Positions 10,909-43,900 of a DNA stretch of 64,000 nt are shown piece after piece (the first letter of the stretch is position 1; each line of letters opens with the position of its first letter). The stretch comes from an uncultured cyanobacterium (lineage in GTDB: Bacteria > Cyanobacteriota > Cyanobacteriia > Cyanobacteriales > Cyanobacteriaceae). Where the stretch lies: NCBI GenBank assembly GCA_963749915.1, contig CAVVOP010000022.1, forward strand, positions 1 to 64,000. Reading direction: 5' to 3'. The notes beneath the pieces were generated by a model. It saw only the letters and a list, made by a program, of their open reading frames with translations. It searched no databases and was not told the origin of the DNA. The translations under genes and the position numbers were made by a program.

Positions 10909-11110
10909 TGTTGTATAACCACTAATTTTATACCAGTCGCCAATAGTGTTAAGACATAACTTGACATCATAAACATTTTAAGTTGCAATAGTATCAGTCA
11001 ATCAACTAACTGTATTTAATAAAATTGTGATTGTTTTTCTCAGAGGAATAATTTACCAGTAAATTATTTGTCTATTTTTCGTTATTTATATCCACTTTGT
11101 GATCAAAATT

Positions 11111-12139
11111 ATGGATGAAAAATTTAATGATTCTCAGAAAAAACAAAATTCAGCTATTGAAATCAAAAAATCATTAAAAAGAACTATTATTCAACTAGAA
11201 AAAGCTATCAGTATCATTAATCAGAAATCTATTAAATATTTACCTAATTTAATGGTGGTAGATAATTTAGTTAATTGTAGTAATGCTTTAGTCGATTATT
11301 TGCAACTAAAAAATACTTCCGTTAACGAAATAACGGAAAGTGTAAATGAATTGAAGAAAAATGAGGAAGAAAATTTAGAATCCATAACAAATAAAGCAAA
11401 AAAGATTATTGCCAATCAAAATAAAACTATTAAAGGCAAAAATAAACCTAAATTAGATATAAATTTTCTGCTAGTTATTGCTTTAATTATCAGCTTTGTA
11501 TTTAATATTTTAACTTGGTGGTTTAAACCTAATGCTATCATAAACTTGCCTGAAAATAAAGAAAATAATCTTAATATAGAGACTCAAGGAACAGAAACAA
11601 TTATCGATAATCCTCCAAGTATCATCTCTACCCAAAAAAAGAATACTAATGATATTAGAGAAGACAACATATTAAATGATTCTAATTCTCGGGAAATAAT
11701 AAATAATGAACTATTAGAAAATATTACAGAAAATGTAGGTGTAGATCAACAAAAAATAACAGAAAATAATGGTATCGGTGATAATAATGTACCTAAGATA
11801 CCAGAAAATAATATTCAAGAAGATTTATTTTTATCATTGACTCCTAAACAGTATTTATTGAAAAGTATCAAAAATCAAATAGCTGATATTACTAATAAAT
11901 ATGGGAAAAAATTAATTATTAAAATAGAAGCAAATTTCAACAAAAATAGTCTCATAATTACTCTGAGTGAAGATTGGTATAGCTTAAGTAATAGTCAAAA
12001 AAATAGTTTAGTTAAAGACATATTTAACAAAGTTAAAACTCTTGATTTTTATAAGTTTAATATTCAAGATATAAATGAGAAATTATTAGCTCGTAATGCA
12101 GTAGTTGGTAATGAATTTATTATCATAAATGAAGATTAA
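11111..12139 (+). CDS. Hypothetical single-TM protein with Asn/Glu-rich linker and conserved cyanobacterial C-terminal domain
   Basis: Long ORF; TM LLVIALIISFVFNILTWW; C-terminal IEANF...DWYSLS...LLARNAVVG. Confidence 0.7.
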   Translation: MDEKFNDSQKKQNSAIEIKKSLKRTIIQLEKAISIINQKSIKYLPNLMVVDNLVNCSNALVDYLQLKNTSVNEITESVNELKKNEEENLESITNKAKKIIANQNKTIKGKNKPKLDINFLLVIALIISFVFNILTWWFKPNAIINLPENKENNLNIETQGTETIIDNPPSIISTQKKNTNDIREDNILNDSNSREIINNELLENITENVGVDQQKITENNGIGDNNVPKIPENNIQEDLFLSLTPKQYLLKSIKNQIADITNKYGKKLIIKIEANFNKNSLIITLSEDWYSLSNSQKNSLVKDIFNKVKTLDFYKFNIQDINEKLLARNAVVGNEFIIINED

Positions 12140-19396: not shown

Positions 19397-19666
19397 ATTC
19401 GCTGTTATTTGATATGCCCGGGTGCGATATTGATTAATTTAACTCTTTTTTTTTCCACTGTCAAGCGGTCATCCCGTTTTAATGGTAATATTGTTACAAA
19501 ACTTAATAAATGAAACTTTAGAAAGATGGTTGTTTTCTTTATAAATAAACAACATTAATCTTGGTATTATGTGATGGAGTCGTGATAGTTCTCGCTCTAT
19601 AAGGAGAAGACGAGGATCACTGTCGGCTACATTAATATTTAATATCAACGTTTTAGAGATAAAAAA

Positions 19667-21841
19667 ATGAACCAGTGGCAACCATCTGCAATAAGACATT
19701 TAGAACAACAAAACTATCACGAAGTAGTTAGGATTTATGAAGGTATCATCGAAAATAATCCCGATGAAATTAATAATTATTGGTATTTAGGATTAGCCTA
19801 TCTGTTGCAAGGAGAAGAAGAACAGGCTCAAGTATCTTGGTTTGTCGCCTTTGAGCAAATTGCAGAAGAAGATTTAGACGCTCAAACTCAGATTTTGATT
19901 GAGATTTTGTGCCAAGAGGCTGAACGACAACTCACCACAGATAATAATAAACTTGCTTGGCTTATTCGCAGTCATATCAGGGAATTAGTTCCCGATAATT
20001 TTGCCAATTTTTTAGAATTAATTTGCCTAGATATTTATATTAATAAATCTGATATTGAACAGTTTGAAACTTGGAAATTGGGAGAATGCTGTCAATTGGT
20101 TTCTGCCAATAGTCTTCCCACCGAGTTATTACTGAAAACATTACATATCATTCTTTGTTTGCCTTGTCCTGATAGTTTGGCCTTTGCTAGATTTTGTTTA
20201 GGTAAAAACCAAGATTTTCAATTTATATTAGCAGGAGTAGTAAATTTAGCCGTGAAGATGGCATACGATCACCGCTATGCTGGTTATGCCGCCGATTTAA
20301 TTAGAATTTGTTTAGAATTTGAACCGTCAAACTTAATCCTTCTTAACGCACTCTATGTATTTTATGGCGATTCCCAAGATTATGAAAATGCCCTAGAGAT
20401 AGCCTATAAGTTTAGGGAAAATAGCCCTAATGTGGCACAACAAATATTTAGTGGCTACCAAATTATTAATATTTCTTTGAAGTGCCACCAGTGGCAAGAA
20501 CTTTCTTCTTTGTTTCAACGACAAAACGAATTAATTCGTCAATATGTTAATAATCCGGAAGATATCCCTATTGATTTTATTCGCCAGTCTTTGCTTATTG
20601 TCAATCAGCCATCTTTTTATATTCAAGATAGTCCCCAACAAAATCGCCATTTTATCAATCAAATAGGACAAATTTTTCAGTCGTTATTTAGAAAAGAGTC
20701 CAAGGTTGAAGTTAAGCCTTATGGTAATGCTTTGACCTGGGATCGCCCACTCAAAATAGGTTATATTGGTAGCACTTTCAGGTCTCATTCGGTGGGTTGG
20801 CTATGTCGATGGTTGATTCATTACCAAGATCAAGAAAAATTCCCTTGTTATATTTATTCCATAACTAATCATTGCGATCAAATAACGGAGCAATGGTTTA
20901 AGGGGAAAGCCAAAGGGTTTTATACTTGCAACAGGAATGTAGGCAATGCCATTGAGCAAATCCAACAAGACGAAATCGATATTTTGGTTGATCTTGATAG
21001 CCTTACCTTAGATTTAGCCTGTCAAATTTTAGCATTAAAACCTGTTCCCATTCAAGTTACTTGGTTAGGATTAGATGCACCCGGTATTCCTGCTATGGAC
21101 TACTTTCTCGCCGATCCTTATGTATTACCCGAAAATGCTCAAGATTATTATTCTGAGAAAATCTGGCGACTTCCCCAAACTTACCTGGGTATTGACGGAT
21201 TTGAGGTAGGTGTGCCAACTTTAACACGAGAAGATTTAGATATTGATCAAGATGCTATTATCTTTTTTAACGTTCAAAATCGCCAAAAACTTCACCCCGA
21301 CACCATTCGTCTGCAAATGCGAATTTTAAGAGAAGTTTCCAATAGCTATCTATTAATTAAAGAACGGGATAATAAAAAAACAGCTCATAAATTCTTTGAG
21401 TATCTGGCACAAGAAGAAGGCATTGAACTAAACCGATTACGTTTTTTAGAAGGCAATAAAACAGAATTAGAACACAGGGCAAATTTAAGTATTGCTGATG
21501 TGATGTTAGATACTTATCCTTACAATGGGGCAACTACAACCCTCGAAACTTTATGGATGGAAATACCTTTAGTTACGAGAGTTGGTGAACAATTTGCAGC
21601 ACGGAATAGTTATACTTTTATGATTAATGCGGGAATAACAGAAGGTATTGCATGGAGTGATGAGGAGTATATTGAATGGGGTATTAAACTCGGCACCGAT
21701 GAAGATTTGAGGAATGAGATTAGTTGGAAGTTAAGACAATCGAAAAAAACTTCACCTCTTTGGAATGGGAAACAATTTACCAGAGAGATGGAAAAAGCTT
21801 ATCAACAAATGTGGGAGATTTACCTCCAGAACAAAAACTAG
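19667..21841 (+). CDS. SPINDLY/OGT-like GT41 glycosyltransferase, copy 1
   Basis: TPR-like N-terminus (YWYLGLAYLLQG), KIGYIG..FRSHSVGW, PIQVTWLG, QKLHP Lys, DTYPYNGATTTLETLWM. Confidence 0.92.
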   Translation: MNQWQPSAIRHLEQQNYHEVVRIYEGIIENNPDEINNYWYLGLAYLLQGEEEQAQVSWFVAFEQIAEEDLDAQTQILIEILCQEAERQLTTDNNKLAWLIRSHIRELVPDNFANFLELICLDIYINKSDIEQFETWKLGECCQLVSANSLPTELLLKTLHIILCLPCPDSLAFARFCLGKNQDFQFILAGVVNLAVKMAYDHRYAGYAADLIRICLEFEPSNLILLNALYVFYGDSQDYENALEIAYKFRENSPNVAQQIFSGYQIINISLKCHQWQELSSLFQRQNELIRQYVNNPEDIPIDFIRQSLLIVNQPSFYIQDSPQQNRHFINQIGQIFQSLFRKESKVEVKPYGNALTWDRPLKIGYIGSTFRSHSVGWLCRWLIHYQDQEKFPCYIYSITNHCDQITEQWFKGKAKGFYTCNRNVGNAIEQIQQDEIDILVDLDSLTLDLACQILALKPVPIQVTWLGLDAPGIPAMDYFLADPYVLPENAQDYYSEKIWRLPQTYLGIDGFEVGVPTLTREDLDIDQDAIIFFNVQNRQKLHPDTIRLQMRILREVSNSYLLIKERDNKKTAHKFFEYLAQEEGIELNRLRFLEGNKTELEHRANLSIADVMLDTYPYNGATTTLETLWMEIPLVTRVGEQFAARNSYTFMINAGITEGIAWSDEEYIEWGIKLGTDEDLRNEISWKLRQSKKTSPLWNGKQFTREMEKAYQQMWEIYLQNKN

Positions 21842-22345
21842 AGATAAAATCTGTTGTTATATTCAATCACAAATCGATTTACTATGAATCAAATAAATCA
21901 GTCTCATATTTTTGAGAACTACCTAAATGAAGAACAGTATGACAAAGCAGCGGAATATTATCAATCATTGCTCGAAGAAAAGCCTGAAAGCACAAAATAC
22001 TATTGGTATTTAGGTTTGGCTTATTTATTGCAGGACAAAGAAGAAGAAGCCCAATTAACATGGTTTATGGCTTTGAATCAACAGCAAACTGAAGAAGAAA
22101 TTGATAGTGCAACTCAAGAATTAATAAACATTTTAGATCAAGAAGCAAAAAGGCAAGAAGCTAAAGGAAATTATCAACTTGCTTGGTTAATTAGAGGACA
22201 TATTCAACAGTTGCACCCCGATAATTTGACTAATATAATGGGCTTAATTTGGTTAGATGCCACTCTACAATACCCAACTATCAGTAAATTTAAAGATTGG
22301 AACGTAATTGAACTTTTATCGGCAAAAAATATACCAAGAGTATCA
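21721..22345 (+). repeat. Junction repeat A (3' end of GT41 gene + 42-bp spacer + 5' end of next gene)
   Basis: Near-identical to 26960-27584 and, over its first ~440 bp, to 29180-29618. Confidence 0.9.
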
Positions 22346-24082
22346 GAGGAATTAATTATCAGAACAATAGATAAAACTTTATCTATTGTTAGTGAGGAAA
22401 GTGTCGATTTCGCCCGTGCTTGTTTAGAACATTCATCTAATTCACCGAAAATAATTGAGGCGATCTCAAGAGTAGCAAAAAAACTCAATTTTGTGGATCA
22501 ATTAATTCTCTACCCCGCCGATTTAATTAACCTTTGTCGAGAAAAAAACCCTGAAGATTTAGCTTTAATTAGATCGCTTTTTGTTTTCTATGCAGATAAT
22601 CTCGAATATTACGAACAAGCTCTGGAAATTGCCACGGAATTGCTGACTAAAAGTCAGACTCTCCCCGCTCGTATTTTTGGTATTCGCCAACTATTGTATC
22701 TTTATCTAAGAAATTTTAATTGGCATGATGGTCTAATGATTGCACAAGAGTATATAGAAGGACTAATTGAATTTGCAGATCAAGGGGCTTTCCGTATGGA
22801 AGGTTTTATTGCCAATATTTTGCCTATTTTGCCACATTATTTACTTTTGTTACAGGACCAACCATCTCTGAATCGTCATATTTTCAATCGATTTAATAGT
22901 CATTTTGAAAATATAACCATAAATTTTGGTGCTATTGGTTTTCAATATCAGTCTTATTCAAATATTTTAAGTCAGAATAGACCTCTCAGAATTGGGTATA
23001 TAGGTCATACATTTAGAGCTCATTCCGTGGGTTGGTTATGTCGTTGGTTGATTTCCTATCATGATTCCAGTAATTTTGATGTGTTTATATACTCAATGAC
23101 AGATTCCATAGATAAAATTACCCAAGAGTGGTTTATCAAAAATACAAAGAACTTTTATTCTTATTCCGATGATATATTTTATGAAAATATTGTTCAACAA
23201 ATTCGAGATGATGTTCTTGATATTCTGATAGATGTAGATAGTATAACTTTGAATTCAACCTGCGAAGTAATGGTACATAAACCAGCTCCAATCCAAGTTA
23301 CTTGGTTAGGTTTTGATGCTAGTGGTATTCCTGCTATAGACTATTTTATAGCTGATCCTTATGTGTTACCAGATGAGGCTCAAGACTATTACTCAGAAAA
23401 AATTTGGCGACTTCCTCACACTTATTTGGGTATTGATGGTTTTGAAGTGGGTGTTCCAACCCTTAAACGAGAAGACTTGAATATAGGGAATGATAGCATT
23501 ATTTTTATGAATATTCAAGGTCCTCTCAAACTTCATCCTGATACTCTTCGCTTACAATTGCGTATTCTGAAAAATGTACCAAACAGTTATTTACTGGTTA
23601 AGGGAAAAGACGATCAACGTTTTCTCCAAAAACTTTATGCTCAGTTAGCGACAGAAGAAGGGGTTAATTGCGATCGCCTTCGTTTCTTAGGGAGGACACC
23701 TACTGAAGTAGAACACAGAGCAAATCTGAGAATTGCCGATGTAATATTAGATACTTACCCTTACAATGGGGCAACTACAACCCTCGAAACTTTATGGATG
23801 GAAATACCTTTAGTTACGAGAGTTGGTGAACAATTTGCAGCACGGAATAGTTATACTTTTATGATTAATGCAGGTATTACTGAGGGTATTGCATGGAGTG
23901 ATACAGAATATATTGAATGGGGTATTAAACTCGGTACGGATGAGAATTTAAGAAAAGAAGTTAGTTGGAAGTTAAGACAATCGAAAAAAACTTCACCTCT
24001 TTGGAATGGAAAACAATTTACCAGGGAAATGGAAAAGACTTATCAACAAATGTGGGAGATTTATGTTAAGGAGAATCAGTAA
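21884..24082 (+). CDS. SPINDLY/OGT-like GT41 glycosyltransferase, copy 2
   Basis: Same motifs (HSVGW, PIQVTWLG, LKLHP, DTYPYNGATT); ATG at 21884. Confidence 0.92.
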   Translation: MNQINQSHIFENYLNEEQYDKAAEYYQSLLEEKPESTKYYWYLGLAYLLQDKEEEAQLTWFMALNQQQTEEEIDSATQELINILDQEAKRQEAKGNYQLAWLIRGHIQQLHPDNLTNIMGLIWLDATLQYPTISKFKDWNVIELLSAKNIPRVSEELIIRTIDKTLSIVSEESVDFARACLEHSSNSPKIIEAISRVAKKLNFVDQLILYPADLINLCREKNPEDLALIRSLFVFYADNLEYYEQALEIATELLTKSQTLPARIFGIRQLLYLYLRNFNWHDGLMIAQEYIEGLIEFADQGAFRMEGFIANILPILPHYLLLLQDQPSLNRHIFNRFNSHFENITINFGAIGFQYQSYSNILSQNRPLRIGYIGHTFRAHSVGWLCRWLISYHDSSNFDVFIYSMTDSIDKITQEWFIKNTKNFYSYSDDIFYENIVQQIRDDVLDILIDVDSITLNSTCEVMVHKPAPIQVTWLGFDASGIPAIDYFIADPYVLPDEAQDYYSEKIWRLPHTYLGIDGFEVGVPTLKREDLNIGNDSIIFMNIQGPLKLHPDTLRLQLRILKNVPNSYLLVKGKDDQRFLQKLYAQLATEEGVNCDRLRFLGRTPTEVEHRANLRIADVILDTYPYNGATTTLETLWMEIPLVTRVGEQFAARNSYTFMINAGITEGIAWSDTEYIEWGIKLGTDENLRKEVSWKLRQSKKTSPLWNGKQFTREMEKTYQQMWEIYVKENQ

Positions 24083-25813
24083 ATGTTAAATTGGCATCCA
24101 GAAGTAAAGGAATTAAGAGAATTTACTATTACTTCTTAAATCAGCATTAATAACTAATCTATTTGAACCCATTTTTCTACATCAATGGGATATTTTAGAG
24201 CTATTAAAAACAGAGAAATACCCAGTAATTGAAATTAAATTATTATTAGATATTCTTGGGCAAATTTTATTAATAAAAGAGAGAGAAACTATTGAATTTG
24301 CTAGAGCTTGTTTAATTTATAGTAATTGCGATCCAGATATTTTGACTAAAATATACGATACAGGAAAGAGAATAGGTTTTCAAGATCGTTATGCTAATTA
24401 TGGAATAGAACTTTTACTTCTATGCCAAGAATTTGATCAGCAGAAATTATCTATTTATCTATATTTGCATGAACTTTATCTCTTACAAGAAAATTATACT
24501 AAAGCTGTAGAAATAGTCCATATTTTTGAGAAAAAAGCTGAATCTTTTGAAGATAAATTATTAGCTACTTGTTATTTACTTAATACCTATCCCAAGTTAG
24601 CTAATTGGAATCAAGTTAATAAAACTGTCTATGATTTAACTAACTATTGTGAAAAAATTGTTGCTGAACAATATACTTTTAATTCATTAAATAACAGAAA
24701 TTATTTTTATCAAACTTTAATCAATTTTTTGTACTTGAAAGATGATTTAATTTTTCATCGTCATCTATTTCAAGAAATCTCTTTGTTATTGGATAAATCG
24801 GTAACAAAAACTCAAAAAATTAATCTAACTTACAGTCAGACAAAAAAGAACAAAATTTTAAGAATTGGTTATATTGGAACTACTTTTAGAACTCATTCGG
24901 TGGGATTTCTCTGTCGCTGGTTAATTCATCATCATAATCCAGATTTGTATGAAGTTAATATTTATTCAGTAATAACTAATGAAGATGAAATCACAAATCA
25001 ATGGTTTAAACCACCAAAAGTTAAACAATTTTATGACAGCAAGGGAGATTTAGATCAATTAGCAAGTAAAATTATGGCCGATGAAATAGACATCTTGGTA
25101 GATCTTGATTCATTAACGTCAGCTTTAACTGCTTCTGTTTTACTACAAAAACCCGCCCCGATTCAAATAACTTGGCTAGGATTAGATGCTTCTGGTTTAT
25201 CGACTATCGATTATTATGTAGCAGATCCTTATGTTCTAACAAGTGATGCGGAGAAATACTATAGAGAAAAAATTTGGCGTTTACCTCATACTTATCTTGG
25301 TATTGATGGTTTTGAAATTGGTATTCCTAGTTTGAGAAGAGAAGATTTGGGAATTGATCCCAATAGTATCATTTTCATGAATTTACAACATTCCAAGAAA
25401 CTTAATCCCGATCTTATGCGATCGCAAATAAAAATTGTTAAAGCTATACCGAATAGTTATTTAATGATCAAAAAAACTTATGATCATAAAGCATTATCTA
25501 ATTTTATTTTTGAGATTGCTAAATCGGAAAGTCTTTCCAGAGAAAAAATCGTTTTTATTCCTTCCGAAACACTTAATATAACTCATCGTGCTAACATACA
25601 AATAGCAGATGTAGTTCTAGATACTTACCCTTATAATGGTGCAACTACCACCCTCGAAACTTTATGGATGGAAATTCCCTTAGTTACCAGAGTTGGTGAA
25701 CAATTTGCAGCACGGAATAGTTATACTTTTATGATTAATGCAGGTATTACTGAGGGTATTGCATGGAGTGATACAGAATATATTGAATGGGGTATTAAAC
25801 TCGGTACGGATGA

Positions 25814-26941
25814 CAGTTTAATTTACCTCAATATTTAACTCTTTGTATTTTAGTTAACTTACTTCAAAATCTTAAAACTGTCAGGTTAGAAGAAATGGCA
25901 AAACGTTTTCCTTATCCGATTAAATTAAGAAGTAGAATTAAAAAGTTACAACGATTTCTGAGTCTGGAAAATTGGAAAATTGAAACTATATGGTTTCCGA
26001 TTTTAAAATCAGGGATTATTAATCAATGGGAATCAAAAAAAGTGATTTATTTAGTCATAGATAGAACACAGTGGCAAAATATTAATATATTGATGGTAAG
26101 TTTAGTTTATAATCAACGAGCTATTCCTATATATTTTACATTACTAGATAAAAAAGGAAGCAGTAATTTATCGGAACAAAAACAAGTATTAGAACCAAGT
26201 ATCAATTTATTAATTGAATATAAAATAATCGTTTTAGGAGATAGGGAGTTTTGCTCTGTGGATTTAGCAAAGTGGTTATCAGTAGAGAAACAGGTTTATT
26301 TATCTCTACGTTTAAAAAAGAGTGAATATGTGGAGTTAGAAACTGATATATGGTTTCAATTAAGTGAATTAGGTTTATGTCCAGGATTCTCGGTATATTA
26401 TCAAGGAATAAAAGTAACAAAAACCAAGGGATTTTCAGGAATTAATTTAGCCGCAAAGTGGAAAAGAAATTATGGTCATAAATCTAGCAAAGAACCATGG
26501 TTTATTTTAACTAATTTAGAAAATATGTCGGAAACAATCTCCGCTTATTCCAAAAGAATGGGGATTGAAGAAATGTTTAGAGATTTGAAATTAGGCGGAT
26601 ATAATTTAGAGAGTACAAAGATGGAAAATGAACGACTAATTTCTTTAATTATACTAATAACATTAGCCTATAGCTATTCAACATTTATAGGGGAAGAAAT
26701 TAAAAGAAAAGGAATAAGTGAATATTTAGTTCGTCCGACAGAAAAAGGAAGAAGATATAAAAGAAATAGTGATTTTTCTATTGGTTTAAATGCCATAAAA
26801 TGGCTAAGTGAAATCTGCTTTTTCCAAGAACAATTGGAAGAATTAACCTCTTTATTTCCTCAGAAACACTCTTATTATCGTCAAGGTATGAGAGCTATTT
26901 CCCTTATCCAATCTGCGTTATGAATGCGTTGTCGCCCCCAG
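25814..26941 (+). mobile_element. IS4-family element, left end missing
   Basis: Interrupts gatga|gaattta, which is intact in copies 2, 4 and 5; right end ttgtcgcccccag; the left boundary is already transposase-coding sequence. Confidence 0.88.
25895..26923 (+). CDS. IS4-family DDE transposase (N-terminally truncated)
   Basis: VIDRTQW (D), LGDREF (D), YSKRMGIEEMFRDLK (YREK signature); frame is open 27 codons upstream to the insertion boundary. Confidence 0.9.
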   Translation: MAKRFPYPIKLRSRIKKLQRFLSLENWKIETIWFPILKSGIINQWESKKVIYLVIDRTQWQNINILMVSLVYNQRAIPIYFTLLDKKGSSNLSEQKQVLEPSINLLIEYKIIVLGDREFCSVDLAKWLSVEKQVYLSLRLKKSEYVELETDIWFQLSELGLCPGFSVYYQGIKVTKTKGFSGINLAAKWKRNYGHKSSKEPWFILTNLENMSETISAYSKRMGIEEMFRDLKLGGYNLESTKMENERLISLIILITLAYSYSTFIGEEIKRKGISEYLVRPTEKGRRYKRNSDFSIGLNAIKWLSEICFFQEQLEELTSLFPQKHSYYRQGMRAISLIQSAL

Positions 26942-26959
26942 GAATTTAAGAAAAGAAGT

Positions 26960-27584
26960 TAGTTGGAAGTTAAGACAATCGAAAAAAACTTCACCTCTTT
27001 GGAATGGAAAACAATTTACCAGGGAAATGGAAAAGACTTATCAACAAATGTGGGAGATTTATCTCCAGAACAAAAACTAGAGATAAAATCTGTTGTTATA
27101 TTCAATCACAAATCGATTTACTATGAATCAAATAAATCAGTCTCATATTTTTGAGAACTACCTAAATGAAGAACAGTATGACAAAGCAGCGGAATATTAT
27201 CAATCATTGCTCGAAGAAGAGCCTGAAAGCATAAAATACTATTGGTATTTAGGTTTGGCTTATTTATTGCAAGACAAAGAAGAAGAAGCCCAATTAACAT
27301 GGTTTATGGCTTTGAATCAACAGCAAACTGAAGAAGAAATTGATAGTGCAACTCAAGAATTAATAAACATTTTAGATCAAGAAGCAAAAAGGCAAGAAGC
27401 TAAAGGAAATTATCAACCTGCTTGGTTAATTAGAGGACATATTCAACAGTTGCACCCCGATAATTTGACTAATATAATGGGCTTAATTTGGTTAGATGCC
27501 ACTCTACAATACCCAACTATCAGTAAATTTAAAGATTGGAACGTAATTGAACTTTTATCGGCAAAAAATATACCAAGAGTATCA
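26960..27584 (+). repeat. Junction repeat B
   Basis: Near-identical to 21721-22345. Confidence 0.9.
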
Positions 27585-29300
27585 AAGGAATTAATCATTA
27601 AAACATTAGATAAAGTTTTATCTAATGTTAGTGAGGAAAGTGTCGATTTCGCCCGTGCTTGTTTAACTCATTCTCAGAATCAAGAATCCATCATCGAAAC
27701 AATTTTAGCAATAGCAAAAAAAATAGTTGATAAAAAAGTTTATATTTCATTTGCTGAAAATTTAGTAAATGTGTGTCGTGAACAAAATCCTGAAGATATA
27801 TCATTAATTAAAACTCTTTTTTGGTTTTATGCCAATACCGAACATTATGAGAAGGCCTTAGAGTTTGCATTGGATTTTTTAGACAAAAGCAAATCATTAT
27901 CTACAAAGATATTTGGTACTAATCAATTACTATACCTGTATTTAAAACATTGTAATTGGCAAAATGCTTTATCTTTATATAAAAGTTATTTGGGAGATTT
28001 AAACGATTTAACTGAAAATGACCATATTGAAAAGTTTATTATAGCTACCTTACCAGTTCAGATTAACCCGTTACTTTATATTCAAGACAAACCTCAGATA
28101 AATCGTTATCTGTTAAATAAGATAAGTCATCGGTTTTACCAAATCATATCACAGTCAACTATTGCTAGTAATTCCTATCCTCATTTATTAGACAAGAAAA
28201 GGCCAATGCGCATAGGCTACATTGGTCATACATTTAATTGCCACTCTGTGGGTTGGTTGTGCCGTTGGTTGCTACACTATCATAATACTGATAAGTTTCA
28301 ATGTTATCTTTATTCCATGACAAAACGGATGGATAACCTAACAAATGAATGGTTTATTAAAAAGGCTGTAAAATTTTATTCCTATGATGTAACTCTTACA
28401 CTAGATGCCATTCAACAAATTAAAGATGACGAAATTGACATTCTAGTTGACCTTGACAGTATAACTTTAAATACGACTTGTCAAATTATGGCGTTAAAAC
28501 CAGCTCCAATCCAAGTTACTTGGTTAGGTTTTGATGCTAGTGGTATTCCTGCTATAGACCATTTTATAGCTGATCCTTATGTCTTACCAGAAAATGCTCA
28601 AGACTATTACTCAGAAAAAATCTGGCGTTTACCTCACACTTATGTAGGTATTGATGGTTTTGAAGTGGGTGTTCCAACCCTTAAACGAGAAGACTTGAAT
28701 ATAGGGAATGATAGCATTATTTTTATGAATATTCAAGGTCCTCTCAAACTTCATCCTGATACTCTTCGCTTACAATTGCGTATTCTGAAAAATGTACCAA
28801 ACAGTTATTTACTGGTTAAGGGAAAAGACGATCAACGTTTTCTCCAAAAACTTTATGCTCAGTTAGCGACAGAAGAAGGGGTTAATTGCGATCGCCTTCG
28901 TTTCTTAGGGAGAACACCCACTGAAGTAGAACACAGAGCAAATCTGAGAATTGCCGATGTAATATTAGATACTTACCCTTACAATGGGGCAACTACCACC
29001 CTCGAAACCTTATGGATGGAAATTCCCTTAGTTACGAGAGTTGGTGAACAATTTGCAGCACGGAATAGTTATACTTTTATGATTAATGCAGGTATTACTG
29101 AGGGTATTGCATGGAGTGATACAGAATATATTGAATGGGGTATTAAACTCGGTACGGATGAGAATTTAAGAAAAGAAGTTAGTTGGAAGTTAAGACAATC
29201 GAAAAAAACTTCACCTCTTTGGAATGGAAAACAATTTACCAGGGAAATGGAAAAGACTTATCAACAAATGTGGGAGATTTATCTCCAGAACAAAAACTAG
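27123..29300 (+). CDS. SPINDLY/OGT-like GT41 glycosyltransferase, copy 4
   Basis: Same motifs; N- and C-terminal blocks shared with copy 2. Confidence 0.92.
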   Translation: MNQINQSHIFENYLNEEQYDKAAEYYQSLLEEEPESIKYYWYLGLAYLLQDKEEEAQLTWFMALNQQQTEEEIDSATQELINILDQEAKRQEAKGNYQPAWLIRGHIQQLHPDNLTNIMGLIWLDATLQYPTISKFKDWNVIELLSAKNIPRVSKELIIKTLDKVLSNVSEESVDFARACLTHSQNQESIIETILAIAKKIVDKKVYISFAENLVNVCREQNPEDISLIKTLFWFYANTEHYEKALEFALDFLDKSKSLSTKIFGTNQLLYLYLKHCNWQNALSLYKSYLGDLNDLTENDHIEKFIIATLPVQINPLLYIQDKPQINRYLLNKISHRFYQIISQSTIASNSYPHLLDKKRPMRIGYIGHTFNCHSVGWLCRWLLHYHNTDKFQCYLYSMTKRMDNLTNEWFIKKAVKFYSYDVTLTLDAIQQIKDDEIDILVDLDSITLNTTCQIMALKPAPIQVTWLGFDASGIPAIDHFIADPYVLPENAQDYYSEKIWRLPHTYVGIDGFEVGVPTLKREDLNIGNDSIIFMNIQGPLKLHPDTLRLQLRILKNVPNSYLLVKGKDDQRFLQKLYAQLATEEGVNCDRLRFLGRTPTEVEHRANLRIADVILDTYPYNGATTTLETLWMEIPLVTRVGEQFAARNSYTFMINAGITEGIAWSDTEYIEWGIKLGTDENLRKEVSWKLRQSKKTSPLWNGKQFTREMEKTYQQMWEIYLQNKN

Positions 29301-29618
29301 AGATAAAATCTGTTGTTATATTCAATCACAAATCGATTTACTATGAATCAAATAAATCAGTCTCATATTTTTGAGAACTACCTAAATGAAGAACAGTATG
29401 ACAAAGCAGCGGAATATTATCAATCATTGCTCGAAGAAGAGCCTGAAAGCATAAAATACTATTGGTATTTAGGTTTGGCTTATTTATTGCAAGACAAAGA
29501 AGAAGAAGCCCAATTAACATGGTTTATGGCTTTGAATCAACAGCAAACTCAAGAAGAAATTGATAGTGCAACTCAAGAATTAATAAACATTTTAGATCAA
29601 GAAGCAAAAAGGCAAGAA
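29180..29618 (+). repeat. Junction repeat C
   Basis: Near-identical to the first ~440 bp of repeats A and B; diverges after gaagcaaaaaggcaagaa. Confidence 0.9.
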
Positions 29619-31529
29619 AAATTAGGAAATCAAAGTTTAACTTACACTATTAGAGAACAAATTAGAGAGACTTATCCTCAAAATATTAATAACTTACTGA
29701 AGTTAGTCTTACTTAAAATAAGTTTAAATCTATTTCAAATTGAGGATATTAAACAATGGAATATAGCAAATTTATTGGTAGAAAATAAAGAAGATAAAAT
29801 AGATAAAGAACTATTGTTATTAGTAGTAGAAATACTCTTAAACTTGCCCTCAGATGAAATTATAGATTTAGCAGAAGCTGTTTATAATTATGTTGAAGAA
29901 GATGATAGCATAACGGATTTATTTTTATCAAAAGCAACAAAACTGGCACAAGAAAAAGGATATTATGGTTATGCCGCTGGGTTATGCGAAATTTGCCTTA
30001 AAAAGAAATCCAATAATTTAAAAATTTTAAACCAAGTAATTTCTTACTATTCAGCAGCTAGTCAATATAACCAAGTACGATTTTTAGCCCAAAGGTTTTA
30101 CGAATGTAGCAATACCATCGATGAAAAAGCACTTGCTTTACGTCTATTAATTTCTAACACCATAACAGTTGGCGATTGGCAAGAAGCTGTTAAAATAGTT
30201 GCTAAATATAAAGCCATATTACAGGAGTTAGTTAAGGAACAACCCGAGATAAAAGATGCTTATATTCGTAACTGTTTGAGTATGGTGACTCAACCTTTAC
30301 TTTATTTTGATGATCAACCTCAAGAAAAAAGATTAATTATTAACGGCGTTGCTCAATTATTTCAAAAATTAATCCGTAACTACTATAGTTGTCCTGTTCA
30401 TCTTACATCTCCAGAGAAAATAAAGATTGCTCGAAAACTAAAAATTGGTTATATTGGACACACATTGCGATCGCACTCTGTCGGATTTCTTAGTCGATGG
30501 TTGATCCGTCACCATGATCGAGAAAAATTTGCTATTTATACTTATTTTGTTTGTCATCAAATAGAAGATGAAATAACCCAAGAGTTTTTTAGAAAAGACG
30601 TCGATCAAGCCCATAATTCCACTAATGTAGTTAATGATTTAATTACCCAAATAGAAAAAGACCAGATTGACATATTAGTAGATTTGGATAGTTTTACCGA
30701 GAATATGACTTCTATAATCATGGCATTAAAACCAGCCCCCATACAGGTAGCTTGGTTAGGAATGGATACTAACGGTATTCCAGCCATTGATTATTTTATT
30801 GCCGATCCTTATGTCTTACCTGATGAAGCCCAAGACTATTATCAAGAAAAAATTTGGCGCTTACCCTATAGTTATTTAGGTGTTGATGGTTTTGAGGTAG
30901 ATGTACCAAACATATCGAGAGGTGATTTAGATATTCCATCAGATGCAATTATTTATCTCAATATTCAAAACTCCGTAAAACGTCATCCTGACATTATTCA
31001 TAGCCAAATGAAAATTATTAATGCAGTACCCCATAGTTATTTAGTAATTAAAGGCAGTGGAGATCAAGAAATACTAAAACAATTATTCGTCACCATCGCA
31101 GAACAAGAAGGAGTTGATAAAAACAGATTAAGATTTTTACCGCAAACTTTAACAGAGAAAATTCATCGAGCAAATCTGAGGATTGCCGATGTAATGTTAG
31201 ATACTTATCCCTATAATGGGGCAACTACAACCTTAGAAACTTTATGGATGGAAACACCCTTAGTTACCAGAGTTGGGGAACAATTTGCAGCACGGAATAG
31301 TTATACTTTTATGATTAATGCAGGTATTACTGAGGGTATTGCATGGAGTGATGAAGAATATATTGAATGGGGTATTAAACTCGGTACGGATGAGAATTTA
31401 AGAAAAGAAGTTAGTTGGAAGTTAAAACAATCGAAGAAAACTTCACCTCTTTGGAATGGAAAAAAATTTACCAGAGAGATGGAAAAAGCGTATCAACAAA
31501 TGTGGGAGATTTATGTTAATGATCATTAA
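29343..31529 (+). CDS. SPINDLY/OGT-like GT41 glycosyltransferase, copy 5
   Basis: HSVGF, PIQVAWLG, VKRHP, DTYPYNGATT; first ~92 aa shared with copies 2 and 4. Confidence 0.92.
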   Translation: MNQINQSHIFENYLNEEQYDKAAEYYQSLLEEEPESIKYYWYLGLAYLLQDKEEEAQLTWFMALNQQQTQEEIDSATQELINILDQEAKRQEKLGNQSLTYTIREQIRETYPQNINNLLKLVLLKISLNLFQIEDIKQWNIANLLVENKEDKIDKELLLLVVEILLNLPSDEIIDLAEAVYNYVEEDDSITDLFLSKATKLAQEKGYYGYAAGLCEICLKKKSNNLKILNQVISYYSAASQYNQVRFLAQRFYECSNTIDEKALALRLLISNTITVGDWQEAVKIVAKYKAILQELVKEQPEIKDAYIRNCLSMVTQPLLYFDDQPQEKRLIINGVAQLFQKLIRNYYSCPVHLTSPEKIKIARKLKIGYIGHTLRSHSVGFLSRWLIRHHDREKFAIYTYFVCHQIEDEITQEFFRKDVDQAHNSTNVVNDLITQIEKDQIDILVDLDSFTENMTSIIMALKPAPIQVAWLGMDTNGIPAIDYFIADPYVLPDEAQDYYQEKIWRLPYSYLGVDGFEVDVPNISRGDLDIPSDAIIYLNIQNSVKRHPDIIHSQMKIINAVPHSYLVIKGSGDQEILKQLFVTIAEQEGVDKNRLRFLPQTLTEKIHRANLRIADVMLDTYPYNGATTTLETLWMETPLVTRVGEQFAARNSYTFMINAGITEGIAWSDEEYIEWGIKLGTDENLRKEVSWKLKQSKKTSPLWNGKKFTREMEKAYQQMWEIYVNDH

Positions 31530-31577
31530 TACAACGAATGCTAATGTAATTGAATTATTGTCATAAAGACATAATTT

Positions 31578-32201
31578 TTAATTCCCTATTTCCAGTTTTC
31601 CCAAGATAATCAAACTTTCTAAATCTTCCGCCGCAGTTGGTAAATAAGTTTTAATAACTTGTCTGACTATACTTAATTCTGTTTCCTCTGCCAATGCCAA
31701 CATTCTACTTATATCTGCTAGATCCTGGGTTCGACTAGCAGACAACTTCATTAGTATAAGATAAGGTAAAGGAATAATCGGTAAACCATCTGGGGCATAA
31801 TTAGGATTACAAAGGGCATCTTTAACCCAATCATCTTCCCCTTCTAAAACATCTAAAGATGTGTTGTCCAACAATTGCCATTGAGTACCAGGAATACTCA
31901 AATTGCCTATTTTTTTGGCGTTGGCATTTTTTAAGTCTTGATAAATAAGCTCAGAATCTTCTGATTTAATGAGAATATCAAGATCTAAGGTCATTCTTTC
32001 CGGCATATACATTCTTGTTGCAATCCCACCAACAACCACAAAAGGAGCTTGTTTTAAGATTAAGTTTAGATTACTCACTGGATAAGTCCAACTACGTTGA
32101 TGTAAAAATTCTAAACTGCTACCACTACCAGATTTTATTCGTTTTTCAACCAGACCGAGAAAAAATCTTCTTTTTTGTGCCGATAAATCTTGAACTAACA
32201 T
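31578..32201 (-). CDS. Putative Pol-beta-fold nucleotidyltransferase
   Basis: FVVVGGIA...RMTLDLDILI (hGG..DxD) and LILMKL.ASRTQDLAD helical tail. Confidence 0.7.
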   Translation of the reverse strand: MLVQDLSAQKRRFFLGLVEKRIKSGSGSSLEFLHQRSWTYPVSNLNLILKQAPFVVVGGIATRMYMPERMTLDLDILIKSEDSELIYQDLKNANAKKIGNLSIPGTQWQLLDNTSLDVLEGEDDWVKDALCNPNYAPDGLPIIPLPYLILMKLSASRTQDLADISRMLALAEETELSIVRQVIKTYLPTAAEDLESLIILGKLEIGN

Positions 32202-32373
32202 GGGTATAAATTTATTTTATTTCAGTAAATGAAAGGTTGACGTTTTTTGAACTATTCTCCTTATTGATCGCGGATGTTGAAACTTTTTAAAAAAGTTTTG
32301 TTAATAACGAAAACGAAAAAATAACTGAATTATTGTATATTGTAAAATGAATATAAAAAATATATAGTTATTT

Positions 32374-34722
32374 ATGACTAATAATTCTCCTTTCATCAGC
32401 TATCACCAATATTTACAGGAACACTTCTCGGAAATTAATTTATCATCATTACCTCTATGGAAATCAGCAGAGGAAACAGATTGGGACAGTCCTTCTACGG
32501 CTATAGAGTTAAATAATTTTGCCGTCGTAAATATTATTGAAGCAGAAAACACTCAGGATACTTCTTTAAGGCAATTTTATCTAGAATTGGCCATTGAAGC
32601 CTTAGAAACGGCTTTAAATGTGGAAGAAACTAATCCTCTTTGTGTGGCACATTTGGGTATTATTAAAAATTTATTGGGTGAAACCAATCTTGGTTGCAAT
32701 ATAGAATATTCTAATTTATTGACGCTTTTGCCTATTATTTTTACACAAAAAAATAATTTACCAGCTGGATTCGTTTATTTACCGATTCCATTAAGGAATA
32801 AAGCAAAAAACAAGGAAAATTTACAAAAAATAATTAGTTTAGATAATGGCTATTTACAGGCTTTTTATCTATTAATTGCTGATTTAGAACAGTCACAGAT
32901 GGTTTTTTACAACCCTTGGGGATTAAGGATGCTTAATTTAGTTAATCAAATAATACCTGATGCTGTTAATATTAAGCTCAATTTAGGCATAAGTAGTCTT
33001 TTTAATAAACAAGTCGAAGGTTTACTTTATCTATATCAAGCGGGACAATTAGAATCTCATAACAGTAGAGTTGTTCAATCTTTGTATCTTTGCTATTGTG
33101 ATCTCGACGATCAACAATTAGCTAATAGTTATTATCAATATGGCAATAATTATTATCAGCAAAATCGTGAAAATATAAACTGGCAATGGGCAAATTTACC
33201 ACTGGAAAATTCCTGGACTTATCTTAAATTTGATGATAATTTATTAATGGCTGTGGAAGCTAGTTTCAAATCTATTGTTACGGCTGTTTTATTGGCACAA
33301 GAAGATTGGTTTGAGAAAGAAATGGAGTTATGGCGAGATGAAATTAAGCCTAATATGACAGTAATTGATGTGGGTGCCAATGTTGGTGTTTATACCTTTA
33401 GTGCCGCTAAAAGAGTCGGAAAAAATGGAAAAGTAATAGCAGTTGAACCGTTTTTTGGCTGTGTAGAATGTTTAGAGGAAACCCGTAGAATCAACAAATT
33501 AGATTGGGTGAATATTTGTGCTGGTGCGGCAGGAGATAGCAATAAAACTGTTAAACTATCCTTACATCAAGCCAGTGAATTAAACGAAATTATTAAAGAC
33601 GATTCAGGTCTCCAAGGCAATTATCAAGAGGTGGAATGTTTTACCCTCGATAGTTTAGTGGAAAAATATAATTTATCTACCGTTGACTGGTTAAAATTAG
33701 ATGCCGAAGGTAACGAAATTGAAGTATTACTCGGTAGCAGTCGCATTTTATCGGACTTTAAGCCCAGTATCTTATACGAAAATATCGCCGGTAGTCAAGG
33801 AAATAATATCCCCGTCGCTCAATATTTACTGAGTATTGGCTATGAGTTGTTCTATTATCAACCCTTTCTTAAACAATTAATTCAACTTGAATCACTAGAA
33901 GAATTATCAGGTAAATTAAATATTATTGCACTACCAAGGATAAACCAATCAGATATATCCAATTTACCCAAAGCCCAAGCAGAAGATTTTGTCGGAAGGT
34001 TTAGAGAAATCTTGGCCGATCCAAGTAATAAATATATTCCTAGATGTGAAAATGCCGGCAAACTAGAAAATGGTTATGTGATCATGCACAACGGGTTAAA
34101 AGTTTTTCCTACTTATTATGGTAATTTCTCTCAAATTCTTATCTTCAATAAGGGAGTTCACGAACCACAAGAAGAAAGAATGTTTATGGAAGTTTTAAAA
34201 TATATAAAACCAGGTGGGACAATGATTGAATTGGGGGCTTATTGGTCTTTTTATTCAATGTGGTTTCACCAACAAATACCCGATGCAAGGAATTATATGA
34301 TTGAACCGGATCCCAATAATATTCGTTGTGGAGTTGATAACTTTGAACTTAATAACATGATCGGTAATTTTGTTATTGGTGGAATAGGTGAAGGGGGAAT
34401 AGTTCTCAACGATTTTATGTCAGATAATGAGATTGATTATATAGATTTATTACATTTAGATATTCAGGGGACTGAATTATATTTTTTAAAAAATACTGAA
34501 ATTATCTTTTTAGAAAAAAAAGTTGGCTATATTTTTATCTCAACTCATAGTCAGGATTTACACTCACAATGTATGCAGTTTTTGCAAGATCATGATTACA
34601 TGATTTTAGCTTCGGCAGATTTTGAGAATGAAACTTATTGTTATGATGGTGTTATTGTAGCAAGAGATAATAATATACAAGGACTAAGTCCTATTAAACT
34701 TGACGTCCGGAAATGTGTTTAA
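32374..34722 (+). CDS. TPR-like N-terminus plus two FkbM-family methyltransferase domains
   Basis: Domain 1: VIDVGANVGVYT...AVEP...LKLDAEGNE; domain 2: MIELGAYWSFYS...MIEPD...LHLDIQGTE. Confidence 0.85.
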   Translation: MTNNSPFISYHQYLQEHFSEINLSSLPLWKSAEETDWDSPSTAIELNNFAVVNIIEAENTQDTSLRQFYLELAIEALETALNVEETNPLCVAHLGIIKNLLGETNLGCNIEYSNLLTLLPIIFTQKNNLPAGFVYLPIPLRNKAKNKENLQKIISLDNGYLQAFYLLIADLEQSQMVFYNPWGLRMLNLVNQIIPDAVNIKLNLGISSLFNKQVEGLLYLYQAGQLESHNSRVVQSLYLCYCDLDDQQLANSYYQYGNNYYQQNRENINWQWANLPLENSWTYLKFDDNLLMAVEASFKSIVTAVLLAQEDWFEKEMELWRDEIKPNMTVIDVGANVGVYTFSAAKRVGKNGKVIAVEPFFGCVECLEETRRINKLDWVNICAGAAGDSNKTVKLSLHQASELNEIIKDDSGLQGNYQEVECFTLDSLVEKYNLSTVDWLKLDAEGNEIEVLLGSSRILSDFKPSILYENIAGSQGNNIPVAQYLLSIGYELFYYQPFLKQLIQLESLEELSGKLNIIALPRINQSDISNLPKAQAEDFVGRFREILADPSNKYIPRCENAGKLENGYVIMHNGLKVFPTYYGNFSQILIFNKGVHEPQEERMFMEVLKYIKPGGTMIELGAYWSFYSMWFHQQIPDARNYMIEPDPNNIRCGVDNFELNNMIGNFVIGGIGEGGIVLNDFMSDNEIDYIDLLHLDIQGTELYFLKNTEIIFLEKKVGYIFISTHSQDLHSQCMQFLQDHDYMILASADFENETYCYDGVIVARDNNIQGLSPIKLDVRKCV

Positions 34723-42042: not shown

Positions 42043-43740
42043 CTAAAATAAATCTGATCTCGCTATCTTTGCTGCTTTAAATACTTCTTGATCACTTTTT
42101 TCTTGCCAGTCATCATCGCCGATTTGTCTGTAAAATTCTTGATCATAGGGTCTAGTACGAACGACTACAGGCATAGGAACAGCATGACCTAAAACCAGGG
42201 CTTGTTGTTTAGAGTCGAGTTTGGCTAATACAGATCTTAAACCACTTGCACCCGAAACCCCTGTAAAAATAGCGTCAATGTCCTTTTCATCGTTGAGTAA
42301 GCAAGTAATTCTTGTGCCGACTTGAGACATTACTTCGTTATCAATGCCTGAAGGACGTTGATCCACAATGAACAAGGTTACAAAATATTTCCGCATCTCC
42401 CTTGCAATAGTTCCGAAAATGGTTTGATGGACAATTTTGGAATCGAGAAAACGATGAGCTTCTTCGATGGTAATCACTAACTGACGAGGGCGATCGGTTA
42501 TTTTTTGACTTTGTAAAAATTTCTCAGCTTTTTTCACATAAGCGTTATGAATACGACGAGTAATCATATTTGTTACTAGCATATAAGAAAGCATATTACC
42601 TTGTGATCCAAATTCTACGACAATGTGTTTGCCTCCGTCTAATAAATTGAGAATTTCTTTAATATAATTATGAGGACAAGCTGAACGCATATACTTAAGA
42701 CTCTGAAGACGTTTCAATTTCCTTTGTAGTGCCATAATTGAGCCTTGATGCCCTTGTTTTTCATTACAAAATACTTGGATTTCCTCATTTGTCATGTTTA
42801 AGAGGCGATAAATCCAATCTCTGCCATATTCTGAGGCTAAAACATTAGCATTATCCAAACTAGCTTCGGATAAGTTCAATTCTCTCGCAATTAATCGTAA
42901 ATCCTCAATCTCGATTTGATCATAACTCAAGTACAACTCATGAGCGCTGGTTACTCCTCGGCGATTAGTGGATTCGGCATCTAGGGTATAAATTTCCACT
43001 CGATTGGGAAAAAGTTGCTTTAATCCTTTTACCATGCTAAAGTTTTTCCCCTCACTTACCGCCGCCCAACCATACTCCGAGTGCATATCAAACATAAGAT
43101 TAACTGCCGCTTCCTTGTGGATAACACCAGAAATCAATAATCGTGTTAAAAATGATTTTCCTGTGCCAGATTTGCCGAAAATTCCGTTACTACGTTCAAC
43201 AAAACGAGCTAAATCCATACAAACTGGGACATCCATATCCAAAGGTTGACCGATGGAAAAATTGCATTTATGTGGATCATCTTCCCAACCAAAAACCGAG
43301 CGAAAATCTTGCTCTGTGGATTCATATACTTGACTAAAATGACTAGGGATTGTTTTGACCGGTAACAGTTGCAATTCCGTTTCCAATCCTCTTAATTTCG
43401 GAATATTACCGAAATTATTAACATATTCTTCTTTATTTGTCAAAGTCAACATCAACATTGGTGCGATTTCAATAGTTCCATAGGTGTCACTTCCTGCTAA
43501 TATGTCTAACCAAAAACTATCATTATGATCAGGAGGATGAGTAAAAATCCGAGGGTTCGAAGTACCTAAAGAGACATCTGTTAAAAGACAAAAAAACTTC
43601 GATCGAGTGCCTTCCACCACCAGGAATTTACCTACTCTCATATCTTCTACGGATATATCAGGATGTAGTCGCACTTCCAAACCACCACTTAATGAGCCTT
43701 GAATAACGGATCCTAATGGTTGTATTTTATTAAAGTTCAT
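42043..43740 (-). CDS. HerA-like ATPase (HAS barrel + DUF87)
   Basis: GKSGTGKS, FDMHSEYG, IEEAHRF, IAREMRK, DQRPS. Confidence 0.88.
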   Translation of the reverse strand: MNFNKIQPLGSVIQGSLSGGLEVRLHPDISVEDMRVGKFLVVEGTRSKFFCLLTDVSLGTSNPRIFTHPPDHNDSFWLDILAGSDTYGTIEIAPMLMLTLTNKEEYVNNFGNIPKLRGLETELQLLPVKTIPSHFSQVYESTEQDFRSVFGWEDDPHKCNFSIGQPLDMDVPVCMDLARFVERSNGIFGKSGTGKSFLTRLLISGVIHKEAAVNLMFDMHSEYGWAAVSEGKNFSMVKGLKQLFPNRVEIYTLDAESTNRRGVTSAHELYLSYDQIEIEDLRLIARELNLSEASLDNANVLASEYGRDWIYRLLNMTNEEIQVFCNEKQGHQGSIMALQRKLKRLQSLKYMRSACPHNYIKEILNLLDGGKHIVVEFGSQGNMLSYMLVTNMITRRIHNAYVKKAEKFLQSQKITDRPRQLVITIEEAHRFLDSKIVHQTIFGTIAREMRKYFVTLFIVDQRPSGIDNEVMSQVGTRITCLLNDEKDIDAIFTGVSGASGLRSVLAKLDSKQQALVLGHAVPMPVVVRTRPYDQEFYRQIGDDDWQEKSDQEVFKAAKIARSDLF

Positions 43741-43900
43741 GTTTTCAATAAATGAGGAATAAGTAATTAGAAATTAGTCATGAGGAATAAGGAATTAAGA
43801 ATGAGAAATTTTAAAAATTATTTCAACAGTACAAACTTAGCATGCCACGTTGCTACCAACCGTCAACTGTTAACTATTAAATATTAGCTTGTTTTGATTA

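Follow-up and report, generated by a model that had tools for sequence, protein, structure and literature searches.

The window analysed here, a 64,000-nucleotide stretch (C22:1-64000) of a 4.69-Mb cyanobacterial genome, carries an array of GT41 glycosyltransferase genes made up of four intact copies and one broken copy, followed by a gene for a TPR-like protein with two FkbM methyltransferase domains. From the sequence and from gene context in relatives, we predict that the four intact OgtA-type enzymes add single deoxyhexose sugars from a guanosine diphosphate (GDP)-linked donor to pilins and that the double FkbM protein O-methylates them, a reading to which we give a probability of about 0.6. 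The array represents a known kind of pilin glycosylation with an unusually large, recombination-shuffled enzyme set, and is not new in kind.

The GT41 array

A whole-genome search with PF13844, the GT41 profile, returned only the five units at 19667-31529 of the window (Table 1), all in the same orientation. They score 138–176 bits against a cut-off of 25, with two stretches per copy that place both catalytic lobes above the gathering score. The HSVG and DTYPYNGATT motifs occur in all five copies and the lysine equivalent to SPY K665 is invariant, as an earlier note on this DNA had observed; its remark that the middles differ also holds, with 30–49% identity over residues 191–470. Taking gene 3 to run from ATG 24083 to the stop at 27080 gives gaps of 42, 0, 42 and 42 bp between the genes. 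The array is genuine, and the GT41 gene content is four intact genes and one broken gene. The description in that note of five co-oriented genes separated by 0–42 bp is correct for the units, their orientation and the gaps, but the intact count is four, gene 3 being a pseudogene. Nor are the five paralogs independent, genes 2 and 4 being near-identical outside residues ~180–470.

Gene 3 is broken twice, by an out-of-frame deletion at the 5' end and by an IS4-family insert near the 3' end, and judged by these lesions it is dead. The family-type start lies at 24083 and is followed by the first ~12 codons, after which a frameshifting deletion of ~105 codons falls near 24120. The insertion sequence (IS) copy matches the IS4 transposase family but lacks intact terminal inverted repeats and a full transposase: ~150 bp of the left end, with the inverted repeat and the transposase start, are missing, the right inverted repeat is short by 2 nt, and the target duplication is absent. 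Five further IS copies in the genome are 96.7–99.9% identical over the same 1126 bp, and all of them retain the left end.

Table 1. Positions of the array genes, their repeats and the adjoining genes in the window
Feature	Position	Strand	Description
GT41 gene 1	19667–21841	+	724 aa, intact; middle of its own type, at most 40% identical to that of any relative
GT41 gene 2	21884–24082	+	732 aa from ATG 21884, intact; middle 67–68% identical to orthologs in other genomes
GT41 gene 3	24083–27080	+	Pseudogene; open body 24117–25813, IS fragment, 45-codon tail 26943–27080
Defective IS4-family copy within gene 3	25814–26941	+	1128 bp; NF033591 241.6 bits against a cut-off of 152
GT41 gene 4	27123–29300	+	725 aa, intact; almost the same as gene 2 at both ends and in the C-terminal lobe, with 49% identity to it in the middle (191–470)
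GT41 gene 5	29343–31529	+	728 aa, intact; first 90 codons 97–99% identical to genes 2 and 4
Junction repeat copy (3' gene end, 42-bp spacer, 5' end of next gene)	21705–22159	+	Sequence repeat
Junction repeat copy	26942–27398	+	99.8% identity over 457 bp to 29162–29618
Junction repeat copy	29162–29618	+	Sequence repeat
Nucleotidyltransferase-like gene	31578–32201	-	207 aa; weak DUF6036 match, below cut-off
TPR-like/FkbM/FkbM gene	32374–34722	+	782 aa; helical domain ~1–280, FkbM ~329–490, second FkbM ~530–782

Pilin linkage, predicted sugar donor and probable methylation

Gene context in relatives indicates that the acceptors are very probably type IV pilins encoded elsewhere in the genome. Loci were fetched for 17 of 19 family relatives (G012 was left out, and G019, which is 63% complete, gave no match), and in 14 of these 17 genomes the GT41 genes sit inside a cluster that runs pilA1, pilA2, a conserved 255-aa gene and then a variable number of GT41 genes; G003, G004 and G013 hold a lone GT41 copy with no pilin in the stretch fetched. 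A wide scan gave 86 confirmed stretches and, from these, 76 retained loci; two of the loci duplicate contigs already in the family set, so the two sets are counted apart. Pilins in the wide scan, labelled by BLAST to a small reference set together with the pilin motif, are present at 69 of the 76 loci, within 1.5 kb of GT41 at 66, and at 46 of the 47 loci that span 20 kb or more. For six of the seven pilin-less loci, the sequence runs out no more than 600 bp upstream of the match. Genes 2 and 5 have their nearest relatives in or near pilA clusters (L023, L054, L055 and L022), and 21 of the 110 residues in the PilA1 head are Ser or Thr. In Synechococcus elongatus, Ogt glycosylates PilA, in Nostoc punctiforme ogtA is needed for PilA accumulation, and in 77 of 201 genomes ogt is found next to a pilin gene (PMC9306852). 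Together, the gene context and the genetics lend good support to the earlier suggestion that a surface protein such as pilin is decorated.

That no substrate gene is visible in the window is also correct; the likely acceptor genes lie on another contig, where pilA1 and two pilA2-like genes occupy C19:19552-21495 and the 255-aa gene C19:21635-22417 (L132:4636-5418). The simplest reading of the array is a pilA-locus cassette that moved, its link to pilA having presumably been lost by rearrangement. The conserved ~255-aa gene, which has no Pfam or NCBIfam match, follows pilA1 and pilA2 both here and in many of the relatives, and it remains beside the pilins when the GT41 array relocates. The studied genome also holds near-identical copies of a minor pilin gene on two contigs (C10:47010-47723 and C15:6939-7652).

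The residues at the donor site point to a single kind of nucleotide sugar. K689, A731 and Y744 have been assigned to GDP-fucose in SPY, as against L866, R904 and C917 for uridine diphosphate N-acetylglucosamine (UDP-GlcNAc) in OGT (PMC10027727), and SPY Y744 is reported to clash with GlcNAc (PMC9715652). Mapped through a HMMER alignment to SPY, the five copies all read K, N and Y at SPY positions 689, 731 and 744, and each keeps SPY H495, S496, V497, K665, K689, H728, Y744, T748 and E752. The position of SPY N662 is the only key position that varies among them (N, G, H, G and N in genes 1–5), and SPY N661 and I592 are replaced by Gln and Leu. The OGT/SEC-clan residues L866, R904 and C917 are absent, Lys, Asn and Tyr standing in their place in all five copies, with no Arg at hOGT R904. 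Of the residues characteristic of the SPY-like clan, Lys 689 and Tyr 744 are found in every copy and Ala 731 in none (Asn in all five), and we therefore class the array proteins only as working like SPY and not as SPY orthologs. The same K/H/N/Y/E set recurs in 89 of 93 proteins of the wide locus set, and gmd is over its cut-off in the genome. Because all five copies share SPY-type donor residues, we predict one GDP-deoxyhexose-type donor for the array, and a GDP-linked 6-deoxyhexose such as fucose is our slightly favoured candidate. A fold search with an AlphaFold model of gene 1 ranked SPY first at a TM score of ~0.16; this model, built from a 5-sequence alignment, has a mean pLDDT of 60.6 with poorly folded catalytic lobes, and it was not used for residue mapping.

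Donor residues do change elsewhere. From 90 GT41 hits in relatives we kept 58 proteins, dropping 32 that were divergent or partial, and in 11 of the 58 four donor-contact residues are altered in concert (K689 to S, N or Q, H728 to Y, Y744 to F and E752 to D), at L020:4398-12849, L026:6658-15121, L014:8769-10934, L017:9563-11755, L021:6011-11415 and L029:7816-10008. These proteins, considered for a single origin, form two clades on residues 521–605, three on 91–470, and a single clade only on 606–720, the segment that defines them. The pattern suggests that the changed signature arose in at least two clades, with donor switching in other arrays and not in the one studied here.

The gene beyond the array encodes a protein that probably methylates the pilin glycan. 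TIGR01444 scores 139.8 bits over the whole protein, in two stretches, and 41.7 bits over the second domain alone (cut-off 37.7). A model of residues 1–521 (pLDDT 87) consists of a helical solenoid and a Rossmann domain, with the FkbM structure 2PY6 as its best fold match. The second FkbM domain occurs elsewhere as a stand-alone protein of ~260 aa (2556 hits of similar length) and was not found in the 60 relatives searched. In G001, G006 and G026 a 520-aa gene is followed by a different, separate FkbM gene; the fusion in the window therefore mimics a two-gene unit. TPR-FkbM homologs occur at 16 of the 76 wide loci and in 11 of 60 relatives, six within 8 kb of the GT41 family and five on other contigs of draft genomes, which supports the proposed link between methyltransferase and GT41 genes. 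The statement that a TPR-like protein with two FkbM domains follows the array is right about the domains, but the opposite-strand nucleotidyltransferase-like gene intervenes. Homologs of this gene adjoin GT41 or TPR-FkbM cassettes in L050, L054 and L055. In G006 (L018:16272-19999 and the start of L050), tandem ~155-aa paralogs lie between the GT41 cluster and the TPR-FkbM gene. Homology between the helical domains of the methyltransferase and of GT41 was rejected (HHalign probability 22%), Atlas matches of the former being generic TPR clusters (<0.9), and a joint alignment of the whole 782-aa protein was dropped after its two FkbM domains misaligned.

In the mechanism that we propose, soluble cytoplasmic enzymes would transfer a GDP-linked 6-deoxyhexose (e.g. 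fucose) to pilin Ser/Thr residues before export of the pilin head, the acceptor probably being unfolded pilin; each GT41 copy would serve a different set of pilins or sites, after which the attached sugar would be methylated by the double FkbM protein at up to two positions. We put the division of acceptors or sites among the copies at even odds.

Mosaic genes and copy number

The array genes resemble one another far more at their ends than in their middles. DNA identity reaches 97–99% over the first 90 codons among genes 2, 4 and 5 and 88–98% over the last 115 codons in every pair of array genes; between genes 2 and 4 it is 99% over codons 521–605 and 55–67% over 191–470. These sharp steps in identity along the aligned genes mark recombination between copies. 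In segment trees the ends of the window genes cluster together, and the middles of genes 2, 3 and 5 cluster with proteins of other genomes, the best outside identities being 68% for gene 2, 41% for gene 3 and 67% for gene 5 (to L022 and L028 proteins, of another subfamily). For genes 2 and 4 the synonymous distance falls from 1.6–2.7 over the middle to 0.08 at the C terminus. The ratio of nonsynonymous to synonymous substitution (dN/dS) is below 1 in 12 of 12 pairs over three segments, several of the dS values being near saturation, and none of these pairs gave a signal of positive selection on the variable part. The high dS of the middles and the low dN/dS thus argue for old variety that was kept by purifying selection and then recombined, and not for fast positive selection. 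On these comparisons, the array copies are mosaics in which old, purifying-selected middles from several subfamilies lie between recently homogenised ends. The array probably grew as its near-identical junction repeats underwent unequal crossing-over and gene conversion, which joined old subfamily middles to shared ends.

Homogenisation of the ends was also considered as a general rule and dropped, as only 12 of 46 and 10 of 41 paralogs have the nearest neighbour of their last 115 residues within their own genome; strong conversion is therefore particular to the studied genome and a few others. The earlier term 'diversifying' accordingly fits the turnover in copy number and the recombination but not the selection data, nor is there a recombinase nearby, a scan of 44 window proteins having given no match to any recombinase family. 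SPY holds its protein substrate through the repeat domain and the nucleotide through the C-terminal lobe. With the same C-terminal lobe but unlike acceptor sides, genes 2 and 4 are predicted on these domain roles to use the same donor and different acceptors. Of the earlier proposal that the transferases differ in specificity, a difference in acceptor is hence plausible, but a difference in donor finds no support in the window, where all five copies share the donor-contact residues.

Gene 2 has matches at E 1e-20 or better in 49 of the 60 relatives searched. In the wide set, 58 loci hold one copy, 13 hold two and five hold three; family relatives have 0–4 full-length copies, frequently in company with GT4, further GT41 types and methyltransferases of several families. 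The four intact copies of the studied genome are at the upper end of this range and are not unique. Array content varies between species, and GT41 fragments occur in G010, G011 and G018. A comparison of copy number and order across related genomes, as the earlier note had advised, gives a range of 0–4 in the family and, for L020 and L026, the same four subfamilies arranged in a common order. At least two GT41 copies are present at 10 of 13 loci with at least two pilins versus eight of 56 one-pilin loci (the seven pilin-less loci are excluded, and kin are not independent). L124, L125 and L126 each show three recent GT41 duplicates (middles 64–78% identical) behind one pilin, a route to an array unlike that in the window.

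Contigs from environmental runs of two studies are 99–100% identical to pieces of all five middles and of the methyltransferase, and the middles are therefore real sequences. The runs may include the source sample, and with contigs shorter than the junction span, none bridges the IS site or the array. The repeat with which gene 4 ends accounts for a joint of 23943 to 26942 in run X3. One contig in run X2 has a 14-bp duplication at 19622, upstream of gene 1. Single low-depth contigs (X2 and X3) diverge from the window at 19544, 19878, 27271, 29625 and 32150, and these departures could reflect assembly noise or additional insertions in wild strains. Of these ends, the one at 19544 alone has a match elsewhere in the studied genome; the loose ends in genes 1, 4 and 5, single contigs with no match there, were not used as evidence.

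Proteins of the window in a profile scan include NdhM, phosphoribulokinase and a CAB-tailed ferrochelatase. A promoter and terminator scan found no excess over shuffles (66 versus 72.9 and 10 versus 7.6), a plasmid search returned no record covering 80% of the query, and PADLOC gave no match to the GT41 tested and only a short generic methyltransferase match. In RNA runs just 10–12% of words were present, approximately the size of the IS. Further along the window, DDE transposase reading frames of equal length and equal Pfam scores (46495-47277 and 51190-51972) flank a DUF3782-like gene and an EamA transporter and possibly form a composite transposon. A HerA-type helicase gene and a 415-aa gene without a Pfam match lie in divergent orientation (42043-45148), and a low-GC 346-aa reading frame at 11099-12139 likewise has none.

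Known systems, alternatives and implications

The closest known system is that of pilA and ogt (S. elongatus PCC 7942 Ogt, Synpcc7942_0051, and N. punctiforme OgtA, Npun_F0677; PMC9306852), with which the array shares a soluble helical-repeat protein joined to GT41, an essential Lys, pilin as the likely acceptor and a family position beside pilA, seen in the published 77 genomes and in the 66 wide loci counted here; orthology to the model proteins rests on gene context. It differs in its copy number, four intact plus one dead where that system has one, in being unlinked from pilA, in SPY-type residues that predict a GDP-deoxyhexose in place of the reported UDP-GlcNAc, and in its linked double FkbM gene. 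Arabidopsis SPINDLY, an O-fucosyltransferase (PDB 8DTF and 7Y4I), is the best solved match by sequence and by the fold search with the low-confidence model. The N-terminal half of the array proteins is, however, a divergent helical solenoid with few canonical TPR matches, and their predicted target is an exported structural protein, whereas SPINDLY acts on intracellular regulators. GT41 and FkbM genes also stand together in the Microcystis tubular (CT) pilus cluster (BH695_0841 pilin, 0839 GT41 and 0838 FkbM), which differs in its pilin fold and in having one GT41 and one FkbM gene, and whose pilin carries O-linked monosaccharides of 160 and 174 Da (PMC12397347). By mass arithmetic, 160 and 174 Da equal a deoxyhexose with one or two methyls; that the Microcystis sugars are methylated deoxyhexoses is our own suggestion. 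In Pseudomonas aeruginosa, pilin glycosylation uses periplasmic oligosaccharyltransferases, unlike the cytoplasmic GT41 enzymes. It provides a precedent for pilin glycans as a phage defence that masks the phage receptor (PMC7911016), a role that for the array is conjectural.

Several observations weigh against methylated deoxyhexoses on pilin, beginning with the donor. SPY T747 and A731 are replaced by Ala and Asn in the array copies, and both fcl-like genes of the genome fall under the curated cut-off. XcOGT and TtOGT are reported to carry Tyr at the 744 position as well, so that Tyr744 alone is no proof of fucose. The authors of the Microcystis study derive its monosaccharides from O-GlcNAc (PMC12397347), and 160 and 174 Da also fit methylated pentoses. 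S. elongatus Ogt is reported to act on UDP-GlcNAc, which it hydrolyses, and its PilA binds a GlcNAc lectin (PMC9306852); the array enzymes might accordingly be ordinary UDP-GlcNAc transferases for pilin, and in sequence score human OGT (195 bits) comes close to SPY (200 bits). We nevertheless consider this improbable, as none of the three OGT-clan residues is present. The published K445A primer of S. elongatus Ogt, read by eye, moreover lacks the Gln four residues before the Lys that is found in 156 of 156 array-family proteins examined, and that enzyme may therefore belong to another subfamily. Alternatively, one copy could prime Ser/Thr and the others add sugar on sugar, yielding a short, methyl-capped oligosaccharide on the pilin. 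The GT4, other GT41 types and several methyltransferases in relatives' arrays would suit such a chain, as would the 11 relatives' paralogs with coordinated donor-residue changes and the GT41 enzyme HMW1C, which is reported to form glucose-glucose links. This too seems quite unlikely for the array studied, since all copies in the window keep one donor signature and the HSV motif, and the Microcystis pilin carries monosaccharides.

As for acceptor and gene set, no GT41 gene stands beside the C19 pilA locus, the array sitting on C22, and three loci have three GT41 copies for one pilin. The methyltransferase gene starts 844 bp past gene 5, with the opposite-strand gene interrupting the same-direction run, and 49 of the 60 relatives gave no methyltransferase match. 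It is conceivable that the copies are largely redundant birth-and-death products, that one working enzyme suffices for the pilin and that array size reflects no functional repertoire. The single copy at 58 of 76 loci, the 0–4 full-length copies in the family, the death of gene 3, the fragments in three relatives and the ease with which tandem near-identical junctions would yield duplicates mechanically all agree with this. We judge it unlikely, however, given that the middles, which other genera share, are of old origin and evolve under purifying selection in every pair compared, and that L020 and L026 retain their four subfamilies in order. Lying off the pilA locus, as the copies in G003, G004 and G013 do, and being the only GT41 set of its genome, the array might also serve other surface proteins such as S-layer, tubular pilin or adhesins, besides or instead of type IV pilin; the Microcystis GT41 and FkbM pair is indeed beside a different pilin. 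No candidate surface-protein gene adjoins the array, however, and the nearest relatives of genes 2 and 5 are in or near pilA clusters, which makes this very unlikely. Glycosylation of type IV pilins with a methylated deoxyhexose thus remains the reading that we prefer.

Our literature search, with most subscription journals outside its scope, found no paper that describes pilin GT41 arrays of several copies or a GDP donor for the family, and Fig. S4 of PMC9306852 may already show tandem copies and the supplement of PMC10027727 may list cyanobacterial proteins with the key residues. Two model cyanobacteria, each with a single enzyme, are known to glycosylate pilin through GT41, a modification labelled O-GlcNAc, and the array puts this label to the test. 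If the predictions are not confirmed, the array is an ordinary expanded copy of a known locus. More broadly, and still doubtful in our view, the pilA-linked cyanobacterial 'OGT' family as a whole may consist of SPY-type GDP-deoxyhexose transferases whose joint action with FkbM partners gives pili a coat of methylated fucose or rhamnose; arrays would then be recombination cassettes that swap acceptor middles onto constant donor lobes (and, in relatives, switch the donor nucleotide), producing lineage-specific coats under phage selection. A GDP-deoxyhexose donor, if true, would also explain the 160 and 174 Da sugars of Microcystis as methyl-deoxyhexoses. Genes 2 and 4 form a natural chimera pair, with the same donor lobe and different acceptor sides, for mapping how bacterial GT41 enzymes choose their targets. 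If the prediction holds, these enzymes would be bacterial O-fucosyltransferases, useful for glycoengineering and for asking whether cyanobacteria vary their pilus glycans against phages.

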